In this document: one piece after another, positions 15,853 to 27,108 of the stretch
Numbering within the stretch: position 1 is the first letter of the stretch
Layout: every line of letters starts with the position of its first letter
DNA from: a virus
Lineage: Duplodnaviria; Heunggongvirae; Uroviricota; Caudoviricetes
Reading direction: 5' to 3' (one strand)
Virus record (IMG/VR): IMGVR_UViG_2630968766_000009
Length of the DNA: 40,446 bases
Position numbers and translations under genes: made by a program
The notes under the pieces: model-generated
Database searches by the model: none
Told to the model about the DNA's origin: nothing
The model's input: the letters and a program-made list of their open reading frames with translations, nothing else

Positions 15853-19533
<3,681 letters not shown>

Positions 19534-19559
<26 letters not shown>

Positions 19560-20079
19560 TCAGCAACCCCGGTATCAGTTCATCCAGCGCGGCTGCTTTG
19601 TTCATGGCTTTGATGATATCCCGTTTCAGGAAATCAACATGTCGGTTTTCCAGTTCCGGAAAACGCCGCTGCACCGACAGGGGGATCCCGTCGAGAATAC
19701 TGGCAATTTCACCTGCGATCCGCGACAACACGAAAGTACAGAATGCGGTTTCCACCACTTCAGCGGAGTCTCTGGCATTCTTCAGTTCCTGTGCGTCGGC
19801 CTGCGCACGCGTAAGTCGATGGCGTTCGTACTCAATAGTCCCTGGCTGGAGATCTGCCTCGCTGGACTGCCGCAGTTCTTCAACCTCCCGGCGCAGCTTT
19901 TCGTTCTCAATTTCAGCATCCCTTTCGGCATACCATTTTATAACGGCGGCAGAGTCATAAAGCACCTCATTACCCTTGCCACCGCCTCGCAGAACGGGCA
20001 TTCCCTGTTCCTGCCAGTTCTGAATGGTACGGATACTCGCACCGAAAATGTCAGCCAGCTGCTTTTTGTTGACTTCCAT
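19534..20079 (-). CDS. nu1: Terminase small subunit Nu1
   Basis: 181-aa ORF beginning MEVNKKQLADIFGASIRTIQNWQEQG (HTH), overlapping the start of A as in lambda. Confidence 0.95.
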
Positions 20080-20256
20080 TGTTCATTCCACGGCCAAAAA
20101 CAGAGAAAGGAAACGACAAAGGCCCAAAAGTTCGTTTTCAGCACCTGTCGTTTCCTTTCTTTTCAGGGGGTATTTTAAATAAAAACATTAAGTTACGACG
20201 AAGAAGAACGGAAACGCCTTAAACCGGAAAATTTTCATAAATAGCGAAAACCCGCG

Positions 20257-20268
20257 AGGTCGCCGCCC
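20257..20268. other. cosN cohesive-end site
   Basis: The plus strand reads aggtcgccgccc, the reverse complement of the remembered lambda 12-nt cohesive end GGGCGGCGACCT, about 190 bp upstream of the Nu1 start. Confidence 0.6.
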
Positions 20269-20467
20269 CGTAACCTGTCGGATCGCCGGAAAGGACCCGC
20301 AAAATGATAATAATTATCATCTACATGTCACAACGTGCATCTACGCCATCAAACCACGTCAAATAATCAATTATGACGCAGGTATCGTATTAATTGATCT
20401 GCATCAACTTAACGTAAAAACAACTTCAGACAATACAAATCAGCGACACTGAATACGGGGCAACCTC

Positions 20468-20662
20468 ATGTCAACTAAGAACAGAACCCGCAGAACAACA
20501 ACCCGCAACATCCGCTTTCCTAACCAAATGATTGAACAAATTAACATCGCTCTTGAGCAAAAAGGGTCTGGGAATTTCTCAGCCTGGGTCATTGAAGCCT
20601 GCCGTCGGAGACTAACGTCAGAAAAGAGAGCATATACATCAATCCAAAGTGATGATGAATAA
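20468..20662 (+). CDS. Small basic protein, possibly ribbon-helix-helix (YlcI/DUF3950-like)
   Basis: 64-aa ORF with an Arg/Thr-rich N-terminus followed by IRFPNQMIEQINIALEQKG...WVIEACRRRL; sits between cos and bor on the strand opposite the late genes. Confidence 0.4.
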   Translation: MSTKNRTRRTTTRNIRFPNQMIEQINIALEQKGSGNFSAWVIEACRRRLTSEKRAYTSIQSDDE

Positions 20663-21021
20663 ACATCCCGGTTTCTTCCACCATCGCACCGGAAAAGCGA
20701 CTATGAGGGTAACCCTGCGTCTGTCAGCACAGTAAAACCCGGTGTGCATCGTTTTTGATTATTCCCGCACACTCACGCAGAAGGAATTCCCCGTCGGGCT
20801 ACGGTCATGGTTAATGCGGGAATACGGCGACGATACAGCGCAGCTAAAAGGGTAATGGACAGAAAGAGCGGTTTATTTCATTCCACAGGATTCTGAGTGC
20901 CCCCCTCCTCCAATAGGCTGAGCATCCACCTATATAGTTTTAATTTTCATCAATCCATTTAACTATCGTTTAATTGTTGTCACATAGGATTCTGCCGTTT
21001 TTAAAAATGCAGGATAATAAG

Positions 21022-21315
21022 ATGAAAAAAATGTTGTTTTCTGCCGCTCTGGCAATGCTTATTACAGGATGTGCTCAACAGACGTTTACTGTTGGAAACA
21101 AACCGACAGCAGTAACACCAAAGGAAACCATCACCCATCACTTCTTCGTTTCGGGAATTGGACAGGAGAAAACTGTTGATGCAGCCAAAATTTGTGGCGG
21201 CGCAGAAAATGTTGTTAAAACAGAAACCCAGCAAACATTCGTAAATGGATTGCTCGGTTTTATTACTTTAGGCATTTATACTCCGCTGGAAGCGCGTGTG
21301 TATTGCTCACAATAA
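21022..21315 (+). CDS. bor: Bor lipoprotein (serum resistance)
   Basis: ORF-track frame trimmed to MKKMLFSAALAMLITGCAQQ (lipobox LITGC), 97 aa, lambda Bor length; opposite strand to the lysis genes, as in lambda. Confidence 0.9.
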   Translation: MKKMLFSAALAMLITGCAQQTFTVGNKPTAVTPKETITHHFFVSGIGQEKTVDAAKICGGAENVVKTETQQTFVNGLLGFITLGIYTPLEARVYCSQ

Positions 21316-21346
21316 TTGCATGAGTTGCCCATCGATATGGGCAGCT

Positions 21347-21808
21347 CTATCTGCACTGCTCATTAATATACTTCTGGGTTCCTTCCAGTTGTTTTTGCAT
21401 AGTGATCAGCCTCTCTCTGAGGGTGAAATAATCCCGTTCAGCGGTGTCTGCCAGTCGGGGGGAGGCTGCATTATCCACGCCGGAGGCGGTGGTGGCTTCA
21501 CGCACTGACTGACAGACTGCTTTGATGTGCAACCGACGACGACCAGCGGCAACATCATCACGCAGAGCATCATTTTCAGCTTTCGCATTAGCTAACTCCT
21601 TCGTGTATTTTTCATCCAGTGCAGCAACATCACGCTGGCGCATCTGCATGTCAGTAATTGCCGCGTTCGCCAGCTTCAGTTCTCTGGCATTTTTGTCGCG
21701 CTGGGCTTTGTAGGTAATGGCGTTATCACGGTAATGATTAACAGCCCATGACAGGCAGACGATGATGCAGATAACCAGAGCGGAGATAATCGCGGTTACT
21801 CTGTTCAT
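21347..21808 (-). CDS. Rz: Spanin inner membrane subunit Rz
   Basis: Frame 21347-21820 trimmed to [36 protein letters not shown]... (153 aa), very close to remembered lambda Rz; ATGA overlap with the R stop. Confidence 0.9.
21406..21588 (-). CDS. Rz1: Spanin outer membrane lipoprotein Rz1 (embedded in Rz, +1 frame)
   Basis: 60-aa ORF wholly inside Rz, with lipobox VVVGC and the proline-rich [18 protein letters not shown] tract. Confidence 0.8.
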
Positions 21809-22302
21809 TGCTGACCCCACAAACAGATTTCACGCTCAATCTCACGACGAGTCATGAGACCTTTCCATTGCTTACCGCCAGCATATGTCCAGCGACGTAG
21901 CTGATCACATGCGCCTTTGATATCGCCCTGGTTTATTTTGCGAAGAAGCATCGATGTTCTGAAATTGCCAGCACCCACGTTGTAAACGAATGAGTAAAGA
22001 GCGCCGCGCATTGTTTCCGGTATATCGACTTTGATGTACGGGTTAATTTGTCTGGCGACCGTGGCAAGGTCTTTATTCAGGAGGGCTTTGCATTCTGCTT
22101 TGGTATACGTTTTACCGAGCATGATGTCTTTTCCTGTATGCCCGTGACATACAGTCCATACACCAACAATATCTTTGTATGGTATGTAGCTGACACCTTC
22201 CAGACCATCGTTACCACTTGGGCCAGTGATTAACACTGATGCTATAGCAATTGCTCCGCCACCAATAGCAGCAGCAACGGCTTTTCGTAATGATGGAGGC
22301 AT
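21805..22302 (-). CDS. R: SAR endolysin (T4-lysozyme family, phage 21 R-like)
   Basis: 165-aa ORF with a Gly/Ala-rich N-terminal signal-anchor-release segment ([20 protein letters not shown]) followed by a lysozyme domain. This is not the lambda transglycosylase R. Confidence 0.85.
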
Positions 22303-22517
22303 TATTCACCTCTCGCAGCCTTGCGCTTATCTTCTTTAATCTTGAAATAAAGGTTTGTCAGGTACGTCAGCAGGCCAAATACCAGGCTACCCAGCACACC
22401 TATTGCTGCCCACTGTGAGGGCGTGACTTTATCGAGCAGCTGTAAAAACCAGTAACCGGCACTACCTGCTGAGGTGCCATAGGCGACACCCGTTGTTAAC
22501 TTATCCATGGATTTCAT
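22302..22517 (-). CDS. S: Pinholin with dual start (phage 21 S-like)
   Basis: Frame 22302-22562 trimmed to [26 protein letters not shown]... (71 aa); the MKSM dual-start motif is typical of holin/antiholin pairs; two transmembrane segments. Confidence 0.8.
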
Positions 22518-23105
22518 AACCCCACCTCGCAGACAAAGCGGGTGTAAATTGAGGGAATACAACGTATCGCAAAAAAGCAGAAACGTAACAGACTCGGAGT
22601 CAGTGAATAACTCAGGTATTGAGTTATCAGCTAATATCGAGACTCAAAAAATGGAAAAACCAGCTCGACGGCGGGTTTAAGCTGTGTGACGAAGTAACCA
22701 CTCTTAACAGCATAACCAATTTTTTACGTACGTAAACCACTGAATGATATTTATGAGAATGCTACCGAGTGTTCAAAACACCACCACAAATACATAAGAA
22801 AATCTCAACAAATAACCAATAAATAATTTCCGGAGTTATTTTTAGTTAATTTAAATTAAACCACCGAATTATAGAACCCCCATAAATAACAGCCATTAAT
22901 ATAAATTAGCTAATAGGTTTATTTTTGTTCAAATAAGAGCCATAAATAGGTTTCGATAGAAAAAGTTCAGATAAAAATAGAGATCTACTTCACAAATTAA
23001 ATGAGAAACTAAAACTTACATCTTGAAATAATCACATTGATTAGATGAATATTTATCGCGCAGTGACATCATTTTTTAATAATAGTTCAAAAAAAAGGGC
23101 TCACG

Positions 23106-24203
23106 ATGAAAAAATTAACAGTGGCAATTTCTGCTGTAGCTGCATCAGTACTGATGGCGATGTCTGCTCAGGCAGCTGAAATTTATAATAAAGACAGTAA
23201 CAAGCTGGATCTGTACGGGAAAGTTAATGCCAAGCACTACTTTTCCTCTAACGATGCAGATGATGGTGATACTACTTATGTTCGTCTGGGCTTCAAAGGC
23301 GAAACCCAAATCAACGATCAGCTGACTGGTTTCGGTCAGTGGGAATATGAATTCAAAGGCAACCGCGCTGAATCTCAAGGTTCCTCCAAAGACAAAACCC
23401 GTCTTGCATTTGCAGGCCTGAAATTCGGTGACTACGGCTCAATCGATTACGGCCGTAACTACGGTGTAGCATACGACATCGGTGCGTGGACTGACGTTCT
23501 GCCAGAATTCGGTGGCGATACCTGGACCCAAACAGATGTGTTCATGACTGGTCGCACCACTGGTGTTGCAACCTATCGTAACAACGACTTCTTTGGTCTG
23601 GTTGATGGTCTGAACTTTGCTGCTCAGTACCAAGGCAAAAACGATCGTAGCGATTTCGATAACTACACCGAAGGTAACGGTGATGGCTTCGGTTTCTCTG
23701 CTACCTATGAATACGAAGGGTTCGGTATCGGTGCAACTTATGCGAAATCTGATCGTACCGACACTCAAGTTAATGCAGGGAAAGTTCTTCCTGAAGTATT
23801 TGCTTCCGGTAAAAATGCAGAAGTTTGGGCCGCAGGTCTGAAATATGACGCTAACAACATTTACCTGGCCACTACCTATTCTGAAACCCAGAATATGACT
23901 GTATTTGCTGATCACTTCGTTGCTAATAAAGCTCAAAACTTCGAAGCTGTTGCACAATATCAGTTCGATTTCGGTCTGCGTCCGTCCGTTGCTTACCTGC
24001 AATCTAAAGGTAAGGATCTTGGAGTATGGGGCGATCAGGACTTAGTCAAATATGTTGATGTAGGTGCAACCTATTACTTCAACAAAAATATGTCTACTTT
24101 CGTTGATTACAAAATCAACCTGCTTGACAAAAATGACTTCACTAAAGCACTCGGTGTAAGCACTGATGACATCGTTGCTGTAGGTCTGGTTTACCAGTTC
24201 TAA
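23106..24203 (+). CDS. nmpC: Phage-encoded general porin (OmpC/OmpF family; NmpC/Lc-like)
   Basis: 365-aa ORF with a signal peptide ([23 protein letters not shown]), porin-like sequence and C-terminal ...VGLVYQF. Preceded by a 540-bp AT-rich region and an AAAAGGG RBS. Confidence 0.9.
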
Positions 24204-24211
24204 TCTGATTA

Positions 24212-24252
24212 CGAAAAAGATATGTTGGGGAGGCTTTGCCTCCCCAACATAT
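24212..24252 (-). terminator. 15-bp-stem hairpin with a T-run on the minus strand (candidate late-leader terminator tR')
   Basis: atatgttggggaggc (24220-24234) pairs with gcctccccaacatat (24238-24252); on the minus strand it is followed by cTTTTT (24219-24214). About 140-180 nt downstream of the Q stop in the late direction. Confidence 0.4.
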
Positions 24253-24339
24253 AAGTGGCTCCCTCAAGCCACTTCCTTTAGGAGCACAACCTTGCTTCTA
24301 ACTATATAAACCTTCTGTTATATATTACCCTTTATTTTT

Positions 24340-24365
24340 GGGGGCGTTGCAACGCCCCATTTTTA
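24340..24365 (+). terminator. Intrinsic terminator downstream of the porin gene
   Basis: Hairpin gggggcgttgcaacgcccc (24340-24358) followed by aTTTTTaa on the plus strand. Confidence 0.5.
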
Positions 24366-24391
24366 ATAATTTTTAGTAAACAATTGGCATA

Positions 24392-24775
24392 TTAATTAGA
24401 GTTATTAACAACGATATCCATCTCTAACCGGATATCTAATGCCATTAACATCCCTTCAATTATGCCCTCAGCCTTCTGTAACCTTTTCCCGATATAACCA
24501 TCAGAGCAGCAATGCTTACCTGCCAGTGACATGAATGTCATACCGACTACATAATAATCTACTAATAAATCGTGCAAATCGCTGTTGTTCTTTTTCAGAC
24601 GGGCCATGCACCCGCAAATGATCATCGCGTCATCGTCACAACATTGCGGGCGAGATTTTACTTTTGAAGGAATTAATCCCTTAAAACCGGCGGCAATGGA
24701 CGACCAGGTCACATCTTCATGATTATTAGCCGCCCACGCTCCCCAACGCTCAAGAACCATCTGAATATCACGCAT
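24392..24775 (-). CDS. Q: Late antiterminator Q (phage 21/82-type, QuuD-like)
   Basis: Frame trimmed to [26 protein letters not shown]... (127 aa) with the Cys-rich motif [13 protein letters not shown]; lies between rusA and the lysis genes. Confidence 0.85.
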
Positions 24776-24860
24776 CAACTTACTCCACAAAAATCAGACC
24801 AGAACGCCAATTACAAGCAAAAATCAACAAAACAGTATTAGTTGATTGTTATCTCTGACT

Positions 24861-24998
24861 TCATACTCCTGCTCCTGTCAGGGTTTTGGCGTAATTCTTC
24901 AGTATTCGGTAATCGGTCAAAACAGAACCGGGGAAACGATATAAGCGCAGACGCCCCCAGCGGTGGCGAAGAAGTTCTGCCATATTAAACTCAAACAT
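24861..24998 (-). CDS. Small protein (YlcG-like), translationally coupled to rusA
   Basis: Manual translation: [45 protein letters not shown] (45 aa); its ATG overlaps the rusA stop (TGATG). Below the ORF-track size cutoff. Confidence 0.4.
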   Translation of the reverse strand: MFEFNMAELLRHRWGRLRLYRFPGSVLTDYRILKNYAKTLTGAGV

Positions 24999-25360
24999 CA
25001 TTCATTCCCCATTTCGGTGATGGTCAGTTCCAGCCTCCCACCTTTGGTAACAGGCATCTTCACAACGCGGTAATCAACGACCTGAGCATCATCCAGCCAG
25101 AAACCTGCTTTAGTGAGTGCGTCAAAAGCGGCTTTTTGCAGATTATCCAGGTCACGGCGACGGCGATCCGGCATGTGGCACTCAATGCGGATTTTCACAG
25201 GCATAGCCAGGCCGATATCCAGCATTGCGTTTTTAATGATTCGGGCGACGTTATCGCGGTATGCCTGCCCCTCTGCACTGACGTGCGTGCGCCCGCGATT
25301 ATGGCGGTAATAGCGATTATTGCTCGGAGGCCATGGTAATGTGATACTGTAGGTATTCAC
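24998..25360 (-). CDS. rusA: Holliday junction resolvase RusA
   Basis: 120-aa [40 protein letters not shown]..., matching the remembered RusA sequence. Confidence 0.9.
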
Positions 25361-25647
25361 GCCTTAATAACCCCCTCTTTCAGCCAGATAACCTGTGTTC
25401 TCGCCATACCTTCCAGCGCGCATTCTTTTGCATATGCAGCATCGACAAAATGTGTGCGGCGGTCGATTTCGTCGTGGCAGGCAGAACATGCAATGGTGGC
25501 AATCAGGTCTGGCGGTTTGGTACCGGTGCCGCACAATCCAGTCAGCCGGATATGTGCCAGTACAGACGTTTCAGGGTTGCCATTACATACGCCAGGGATT
25601 CTTACCTGGCATTCCCGACCACGCGCTGCTTTTCTCAAATCAGCCAT
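25357..25647 (-). CDS. YbcO-like putative zinc-binding nuclease (DUF1364)
   Basis: Frame trimmed to [29 protein letters not shown]... (96 aa); Cys/His-rich; start overlaps the ninE-like stop. Confidence 0.7.
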
Positions 25648-25810
25648 GATTCCTCCTTGCTGCCAGTCGCAACCATTTTTTATCAACCAGGCTAGCGGTA
25701 TATCCGAGCAGTGTTGGTATTTCGGATGGCTTCAGCTCAGGCTTACGCTTACGACGATTTGATACTCTGTAGATGTGTCCGTTCATGACACGAATAAGCG
25801 GTGTAGCCAT
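25640..25810 (-). CDS. ninE: NinE-like small protein
   Basis: Manual translation: [56 protein letters not shown] (56 aa); its ATG overlaps the ninB stop (TAATG). Confidence 0.5.
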   Translation of the reverse strand: MATPLIRVMNGHIYRVSNRRKRKPELKPSEIPTLLGYTASLVDKKWLRLAARRNHG

Positions 25811-26265
25811 TACGCCTCCTGCTTGTCGCGGAGCAGCTGGAACTCGCAGCTCTGCGGAATAGTCAGGTGGCAGCCAATATTCACCGCCCAGGCTTCAACC
25901 TTACACAGGAAGACATACATCTCTCCGGTATCAAGATCGGAGGTATAGCGTAATGACTGAATGGTGGTGATTTCACCGGTTACGACATCAACCAGGTCTT
26001 TGGTTTCAAAACCGAGATAAGTGTGTTTGAGAGCATCTTTTACCCAAGCTGCAGTAGCGAACGATTTCCCCCTGCTTATGAGGTATTCACTGATTTCGCT
26101 GTACCACATGTGGCTAAGTGCATTCTGGGAAAGACTGCGTCTCTCGCGCCACGGTTTAAGCACCATGCGAAAGCATTTTCCGTCCTCCAGATAAGGCTGG
26201 ATCTGCTGACCGATAGCGGTGAAGTTACCGCGATGTAATTTGATGCCGTCTTGTGGGAGGTTCAC
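25810..26265 (-). CDS. NinB/YbcN-family recombination protein
   Basis: 151-aa ORF in the nin-region position; remembered as similar to DLP12 YbcN. Confidence 0.7.
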
Positions 26266-26475
26266 GCTTCACCTCCGCAGAGGTCAAACGTTGGATGCAA
26301 AAAATCGCAGGTGCATTTCTGCATCTGTGAAGGGAGAAGAGAGTTTGGATTGTGTGTGCGCATAAACGTCCCCGTTTAGCGCAGAAGTCACCGGAGTTGT
26401 TCAGGTTCCGGTGATACAATTATGGCGAATTGATGACGGAGAATCAATTTTGCGAAAATGACACGATTGATCTAC

Positions 26476-27108
26476 TCAGGCCTTGGAAAGCTTGAGCTTA
26501 CCCTTTACGTGCAGAGTGTTAATTAACCAGAAGGCCCCGAGCAAACACATACAATGCGCGCTAGTGACTAACTTACAAATACGAATGCGATTTTCTTCAA
26601 GATCAGGAGGTAGCTCTTTCATCAACGCTATAGCGTAGATTCCATCCTTGAGAATTGGCTCAACAACTTGATGCACGTAGCCACCATGGTTAATCTCTTC
26701 TAACTTTATGTTTTTAATCGATTCTGCGAGTTTATCAACCTCTTCATTTGTAATTACATATTCAATTTTATGAGCGTACTTGTTACGTATTGTGTTGAGC
26801 TCAGCCATAGCGTCTGCAAGCGAGACAGGAAGCCCTAACAGAACTGCGGCAGACAGCTTTGACGCAAAATACTTATAGCTTCTTATCGAATTGTATTTTT
26901 CAGAGCCATCAGGTCGTAAGTTTTCAATAACAACCCGAAGAAAGTCCTCATGAATTAGCATCAATTTTAATAGCGCGGCAGACTCATCCTCATAGTTAGC
27001 TATCGAGGCCATTTTATTAAGATCTAGAAAATAGCCAAAGTCATGATCGATTTTCACGTAGTTACCCTCATCCGTTGTTGGACTTTGTTCAATTCGAGAG
27101 AATTTCAT
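26476..27108 (-). CDS. Hypothetical protein with a HEPN-like R-x4-H motif (candidate toxin / abortive-infection effector)
   Basis: 210-aa ORF in AT-rich DNA; motif ELNTIRNKYAHK (RNxxAH) typical of HEPN RNase active sites; hydrophobic C-terminal segment LLGAFWLINTL. Start overlaps the upstream small ORF stop (ATGA). Confidence 0.55.
   Translation of the reverse strand: MKFSRIEQSPTTDEGNYVKIDHDFGYFLDLNKMASIANYEDESAALLKLMLIHEDFLRVVIENLRPDGSEKYNSIRSYKYFASKLSAAVLLGLPVSLADAMAELNTIRNKYAHKIEYVITNEEVDKLAESIKNIKLEEINHGGYVHQVVEPILKDGIYAIALMKELPPDLEENRIRICKLVTSAHCMCLLGAFWLINTLHVKGKLKLSKA

Follow-up and report, generated by a model that had tools for sequence, protein, structure and literature searches.

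An intact porin gene lies between the antiterminator gene Q and the lysis genes in the DNA analysed here (40,446 nucleotides, hereafter the window), whose late region, on the minus strand, is that of a lambdoid prophage or phage. The porin gene is oriented in the opposite direction. The question raised by this locus is whether the Q-dependent late transcript has to cross the porin gene in antisense on its way to the holin gene S, and whether the porin occupies the site at which Stx phages carry their toxin genes.

The porin gene and its relatives

The genes surrounding the locus are the following:

17634-19559, minus strand: terminase A
19534-20079, minus strand: Nu1
21347-21820, minus strand: rzpD/rzoD
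21805-22302, minus strand: rrrD
22302-22517, minus strand: essD, a holin of the phage-21 type with dual starts S71/S68 (PF04971, 121 bits)
23106-24203, plus strand: porin gene, lc/nmpC allele, 365 aa, with the signal peptide encoded by 23106-23174
24392-24775, minus strand: Q antiterminator gene of the quuD type (PF06530), 127 aa

Genes ylcG, rusA and the nin genes are found beyond Q. The original prediction described a complete OmpC-family porin of 365 aa with a signal peptide, located between Q and S and antisense to the lysis genes. Both statements are borne out: the 365-codon open reading frame (23106-24203, plus strand) is uninterrupted and contains no internal stop, while Q, essD, rrrD and rzpD/rzoD are all on the opposite strand. 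The span originally assigned to the feature, 22563-24391, is the gap from the longest S open reading frame to the stop codon of Q. Two more plus-strand, and therefore antisense, cargo genes flank the lysis cassette, at 20974-21315 and 20468-20662; they encode a Bor/Iss serum-resistance lipoprotein (PF06291) and a YlcI/YnfO family protein.

The product matches the Pfam Porin_1 profile (PF00267) over its full length (positions 1-337 of 337) with 521 bits, against a cut-off of 23.7, and scores above the NCBIfam cut-off for the OmpC subfamily (527.8 vs 484). Residues 24-365 align with solved OmpC/OmpK36 chains (E about 1e-136). The 23 N-terminal residues, ending in SAQA and followed by AEIYNK, are the signal peptide annotated for lc in GenBank record J02580, and two hallmarks can be read from the sequence, the L3 motif PEFGG (residue 133) and a C-terminal YQF with its terminal phenylalanine. 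The intact reading frame, the family matches, the signal peptide, the PEFGG motif and the terminal phenylalanine therefore confirm the porin observation. As judged by full-length profile match and hallmarks, the product is a general-diffusion porin of the OmpC/OmpF/PhoE family; its likeness to the OmpC/OmpK36 chains would fit a trimer of 16-stranded beta-barrels with channel activity.

The proposed membership of the Lc/NmpC family also stood when the alignments were run: of the 365 residues, 3 separate the protein from Lc of PA-2 and 3 separate it from IS5-free NmpC of K-12, an identity of 99.2% in each case. With Lc (protein 2) of the lambdoid phage PA-2 (J02580), 362 of the 365 residues are identical, the signal peptide is the same, and the three substitutions are V59A, R99H and V154F. 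The flanks of lc are also those of the window, with Rz, R and S on one side and the 3' UTR on the other, and DNA identity to the PA-2 record is 96.8% over 2.8 kb. With NmpC of DLP12 (qsr'), the cryptic prophage of E. coli K-12, the window shares a quuD-porin-essD-rrrD-rzpD-bor module, at 95-99% DNA identity; the stretch 24137-24900, spanning the 3' UTR and the Q region, is 99.1% identical to K-12. The K-12 gene is broken by IS5 after codon 346, whereas the window copy is intact, and K-12 also lacks a short piece of the essD leader that the window has. Gene order in the Q-S-R region of the window is the same as in both DLP12 and PA-2.

Outside phages, the closest relatives are chromosomal porins of the OmpD type from Salmonella, Citrobacter and Enterobacter, which are 75-79% identical to the porin along its full length and whose loci are not in a Q-S module and have no pR' motif; OmpC-like proteins of E. 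coli are only about 62-65% identical to the porin. Many phage records annotate the gene as OmpD.

The 2.5-kb stretch from Q through the porin to S occurs with 100% identity in many E. coli chromosomes, where it is annotated quuD-porin-essD-rrrD. At 80% or more of its length, it is found in 2396 of 5426 complete E. coli genomes, and the porin gene alone, by the same threshold, in 2465 (about 45%). The porin open reading frame is kept intact at 99% or more in hundreds of genomes. Among plaque-forming phages, Turner and PhiR29_1/2 encode a 100% identical protein; PhiR26_1, PhiR30_1, Kati, Chlobot and mEp332 encode porins with 1-4 differences. The gene is not new, and neither are its family, its place in the QSR region or its role, all of which belong to textbook knowledge. 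What has been found is a classic lysogenic-conversion gene, sequenced in 1986 and identified again here, which by itself adds little.

Two groups of alleles can be distinguished among the phage porins of this module, at 99% or more and about 91% identity, with 365 and 360 aa. The differences are clustered at residues 182-190, 219-236 and 268-272, and the first 180 residues are almost identical. The variable patches are probably surface loops, and this would point to selection acting on epitopes or receptor sites that are exposed.

The late promoter and the cargo segment

The 588-bp spacer between the porin gene and essD was searched against phage genomes. Positions 22655-22737 are about 76% identical to the segment which, in 933W-type Stx phages, directly follows Q and is annotated as pR' and terminator. 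The elements that bear on late transcription are:

22709-22736, minus strand: pR' homologue, with a -35 TTTACG (22736-22731), a 16-nt spacer and a -10 TATGCT (22714-22709)
22650-22705, minus strand: initial transcribed region of pR', consisting of AAGAGTGGTTACTTCGTCACAC (22705-22684), then a hairpin and T-run (22677-22650)
23056-23088, minus strand: sigmaE-like promoter GAACTA-N16-TCACT (motif 23088 to 23062), with a likely +1 at 23056
22738-24415, no strand assigned: whole cargo segment at the junction of Q and pR', 1678 bp

The pR' annotated in 933W-type phages reads TTTACG-N16-TATCAT, and the window hexamers match the pR' of 933W/Ss-VASD. A seven-way alignment of the window, K-12, two Stx phages, PhiR55_1, phiP27 and SfII shows a near-invariant TTTACG, 16 nt, TAT(G/C)(C/A)T, followed by GTTAAGAGTGGTTACTTCGCCACAC...AAACCCGCCG..GAGCGGGTTTTT. 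The 22-nt conserved element of this module is present as a single copy in the window, with none expected by chance. In a 933W-like record, 258 nt separate the predicted start of the annotated promoter from the end of the second annotated terminator; the PR'-to-tR' distance mapped in strain Sakai by Sy et al., using dRNA-seq and Term-seq, is also 258 nt (PMC7547250). This distance was used instead of absolute positions, the Sakai coordinates of that paper being those of an older record version. Since the two distances are equal, the homologous promoter is experimentally anchored. The site at 22736-22709 can be regarded as a homologue of the late promoter pR', at about 76-86% identity over 83 bp to records whose own annotations are "putative", and transcription is predicted to start near 22702. 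Downstream of it, the late/lysis operon opens with essD.

It had been claimed that the Q-dependent late transcript must read antisense through the porin gene. This is not supported by the position of the sole copy of the pR' module, which runs from 22736 to 22650 on the minus strand, between the porin ATG and essD. The limits of the inserted DNA are sharp: homology to 12 loci carrying other cargo breaks at 24416/7 and resumes at 22737/6. From these breakpoints and the position of pR', it follows that the porin gene lies in a 1678-bp segment between the Q core and the -35 box of pR'. The conserved core of Q ends at 24416, so that its last 7 codons (24395-24415) and the stop codon (24392-24394) belong to the cargo segment; the Q proteins of the compared phages are 78-85% identical to that of the window through RLEMD (residue 120) and then have differing tails. 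The locus is, with high probability, an ordinary intact Lc/NmpC allele carried on a self-contained 1.68-kb antisense cargo segment between the Q core and pR'.

The comparison with toxin genes has to be reworded accordingly. The stx genes of 933W-type Stx phages lie, like the porin gene, between Q and the lysis genes, in phages that share the Q family of the window (78-80% aa identity) and have a homologous pR' module. In those phages, however, the pR' module directly follows Q, and stx is found downstream of pR'/tR', in sense orientation and within the late transcript; the porin gene is upstream of pR', antisense, and probably a transcription unit of its own. The original prediction, which placed the porin where Stx phages carry toxin genes, is thus not supported: late cargo of the stx type is found past pR'/tR' and reads with the late transcript, and neither is true of the porin gene. 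The slot equivalent to that of stx, at about 22518-22654 (about 137 bp), is essentially empty in the window. A model that takes everything between Q and S to be one slot would give wrong predictions of how such cargo is regulated.

A second promoter is suggested by work on DLP12, in which a regulatory fragment of the lysis operon, "-121 to +650", drives lux (PMC7918800). The forward primer of that study corresponds to window positions 23178 to 23159, within the porin signal-peptide codons, and the reverse primer maps inside essD, with two apparent typographical gaps. The +1 of the DLP12-type lysis promoter would accordingly be window position 23056, six bases past the -10; this assignment is derived from the primers and is not stated in PMC7918800. 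Its location beside the sigmaE-like motif agrees with reports that RpoE controls the DLP12 lysis operon. On the strand opposite to the porin gene, the sigmaE-like promoter occupies a site 18-44 nt before the porin ATG and reads towards essD; a transcript from 23056 would start 50 nt upstream of the ATG, in the opposite direction, and would carry a 539-nt leader. With the pR' and sigmaE-like sites placed in this way, all promoters assigned to the lysis genes are between the porin start codon and essD. Late transcription would then proceed from pR' (about 22702) and from the sigmaE-like promoter (+1 at about 23056) into essD-rrrD-rzpD and away from the porin gene, which would therefore neither be carried on the late transcript nor stand in its way.

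Downstream of pR', the hairpin and T-run read (A)AACCCGCCG..G.GCGG(G/T)TTTT in the six other aligned phages and prophages. In the window hairpin (22650-22677, minus strand), a G to T change breaks the stem (GCGGG to GCTGG), and the local structure has about -6 kcal/mol, vs about -12 in K-12. The change also distinguishes the window from PA-2; it is present in genomes that are 100% identical to the window stretch. The weakened hairpin may allow more basal read-through into the lysis genes.

Transcription of the porin gene

Three further elements, two of them adjoining the porin gene on its own strand, were considered in relation to its expression:

22738-23105, plus strand: AT-rich porin upstream region, 368 bp, GC 0.277, in which the porin promoter is presumed to lie
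24204-24366, plus strand: porin 3' UTR, highly structured, ending in the hairpin GGGGCGTTGCAACGCCCC (24341-24358) and then a T-run
24212-24252, minus strand (Q strand): terminator-like 15-bp hairpin (stem 24252 to 24220) followed by CTTTTT

The "540-bp AT-rich leader" attributed to the porin gene (22563-23105) is a real stretch of DNA, of composite nature: only 22738-23105 is strongly AT-rich, and 22518-22737 (GC 0.423) represents the promoter and leader of the late operon, on the strand opposite to the porin. It is thus not a porin leader, since it holds both the upstream region of the porin gene and the divergent promoters of the lysis operon. The region 22738-23105 is 91-99% conserved, and only among porin-bearing phages. 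A consensus scan for the porin's own promoter found none, there being no clear sigma70 consensus. A site labelled as a CRP site in the PA-2 record lies in this region, at 22977-22997. The second "CRP site" of the 1986 PA-2 sequence, at window positions 22682-22702, is the pR' module's initial transcribed element, which is invariant and contains a GTGG-N8-CCAC inverted repeat; that it belongs to a region for Q utilisation or pausing is more likely than that it serves the porin as a CRP site.

At the other end of the gene, the stretch 24201-24460 folds with an MFE of -82 kcal/mol (z = -7.7 vs shuffled controls). The Q-strand hairpin at 24212-24252 is a candidate stop for the early/Q transcript before the porin gene. 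Given terminator-like hairpins on both strands, the transcripts of Q and of the porin gene are predicted to stop facing each other, their 3' UTRs overlapping by a predicted 150 nt or so. Positions 24204-24366 are presumably the published ipeX region of nmpC/lc; Castillo-Keller et al. (2006) are reported to have described this 3' UTR as ipeX, which lowers OmpC and OmpF. PMC3333887 cites IpeX as a repressor of ompC. A scan of 20000-26500 against Rfam at E<=1 gave no match, so neither ipeX nor the short RNA of pR' is an Rfam family.

According to the proposed mechanism, a promoter within the AT-rich upstream region would serve the porin gene alone and act irrespective of the lytic cascade, so that the porin would be made in the lysogen. 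It would be exported and form a general-diffusion trimer, and the structured 3' UTR (ipeX) would lower OmpC/OmpF; in this way the major porins of the lysogen, and hence its phage and colicin receptors and its permeability, would be altered. The lysogen would gain an additional or replacement general porin. Because the gene is upstream of the late promoter, it can be expected to be expressed whether or not the prophage is induced, which sets it apart from Shiga toxin.

The N-modified polymerase of lambda ignores intrinsic terminators. Early transcripts that pass through Q under N antitermination may therefore enter the porin gene in antisense during lytic growth, a route that is not required for the late genes. 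It is possible, if rather doubtful, that such transcripts would override the hairpin at 24252-24220, cross the whole gene and shut the porin off in the lytic phase, as a regulatory device and not as the late route. The convergent layout and the predicted overlap of the 3' UTRs are consistent with this proposal; antisense read-through, however, is not needed to explain any feature seen.

An intact but effectively silent gene, with little phenotype in the lysogen under ordinary conditions and an upstream region probably bound by H-NS, appears unlikely. The low GC content of that region and the outcome of the consensus scan would agree with quiescence, and intact nmpC can be silent in some strains, as is reported for E. 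coli B (Prilipov et al. 1998). Against it, Lc first came to notice because PA-2 lysogens contain it in abundance, and the reading frame has been preserved in the hundreds of genomes mentioned above. The title of Prilipov et al. 1998, as it is cited in PMC3333887, does call nmpC of E. coli B quiescent. In CFT073, a natural E. coli, two prophage nmpC genes are nevertheless expressed as RNA and protein, more so at 37 C, and in strain AW1.7 NmpC is highly expressed (PMC12890032).

The remaining reading, in which pR' directly follows Q as in lambda, the late transcript runs antisense through the whole porin gene to S, and the porin sits in the stx slot, is very improbable: Q and the porin gene are indeed adjacent and convergent, pR' does abut Q in lambda, in 933W and in 24 of the 99 surveyed loci among the matches listed (see below), and a Q-modified polymerase is processive enough to make read-through physically possible, but no promoter-like minus-strand site occurs in 24204-24391, this stretch belongs to the cargo segment alone and is missing in phages whose Q genes are closely related, the conserved pR' module occurs once only, downstream of the porin on the late strand, a strong terminator-like hairpin on the Q strand stands between Q and the porin, and stx genes are in sense orientation downstream of pR'.

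The receptor of the phage was sought through the C-terminal 299 aa of its tail-tip J protein (1367-2266). The closest relatives carry no receptor assignment in their records, and the best 40 matches include neither 434 nor lambda, so that no connection between use of OmpC and the porin was made. The svsR RNA, a prophage sRNA that limits phage infection (PMC12803456), was considered as well and discarded, as it lies in cI and is unrelated to the porin region.

Cargo at the junction of Q and pR' in other genomes

To return to the cargo segment between the Q core and pR', IMG/VR was scanned for the pR' motif. At least 120 loci were found, 99 of them with enough upstream DNA. Among the matches listed, the motif is in all 99 preceded on its own strand by a PF06530 Q gene. 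The distance from Q to the motif is 20-77 nt in 24 of these 99 listed loci and 0.63-2.5 kb in the other 75, and in every porin-bearing locus among the matches listed (36 of 36) the porin gene lies antisense within this interval. By content, the 99 listed loci divide into 24 with no insert, 36 with a porin and 39 with other genes, mostly antisense.

The other cargo includes Kiwa KwaA/KwaB (KwaB, 498 bits), the KAP NTPase PDC-S20 (590 bits), HNH/PDC-M68A, a NYN nuclease, an alpha/beta hydrolase and NA37. Several cassettes consist of two open reading frames without a family match, one of them hydrophobic and apparently membrane-spanning.

We tentatively propose that the junction of the core of PF06530-type Q genes and pR' may be a general and sharply bounded cargo hotspot of lambdoid phages, taking up self-contained and mostly antisense cassettes, of which the porin would be the commonest and anti-phage defence genes (Kiwa KwaA/KwaB, the KAP NTPase PDC-S20, HNH, NYN) would be among the others, and routinely leaving Q up to 2.5 kb from its site of action. 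No description of the slot as such was found in the literature outside subscription journals. The presence of defence genes at this junction could help in mining prophages for immunity systems.

A last observation concerns the sequenced laboratory phage 434B (OL657227), which, according to the notes in its record, acquired the Q-nmpC::IS5-S region of the K-12 prophage DLP12 by recombination, with a crossover in ylcG. Since the same notes give 434B as a mutant isolate of phage 434, a working phage appears able to carry the module despite the IS5 in the porin gene.
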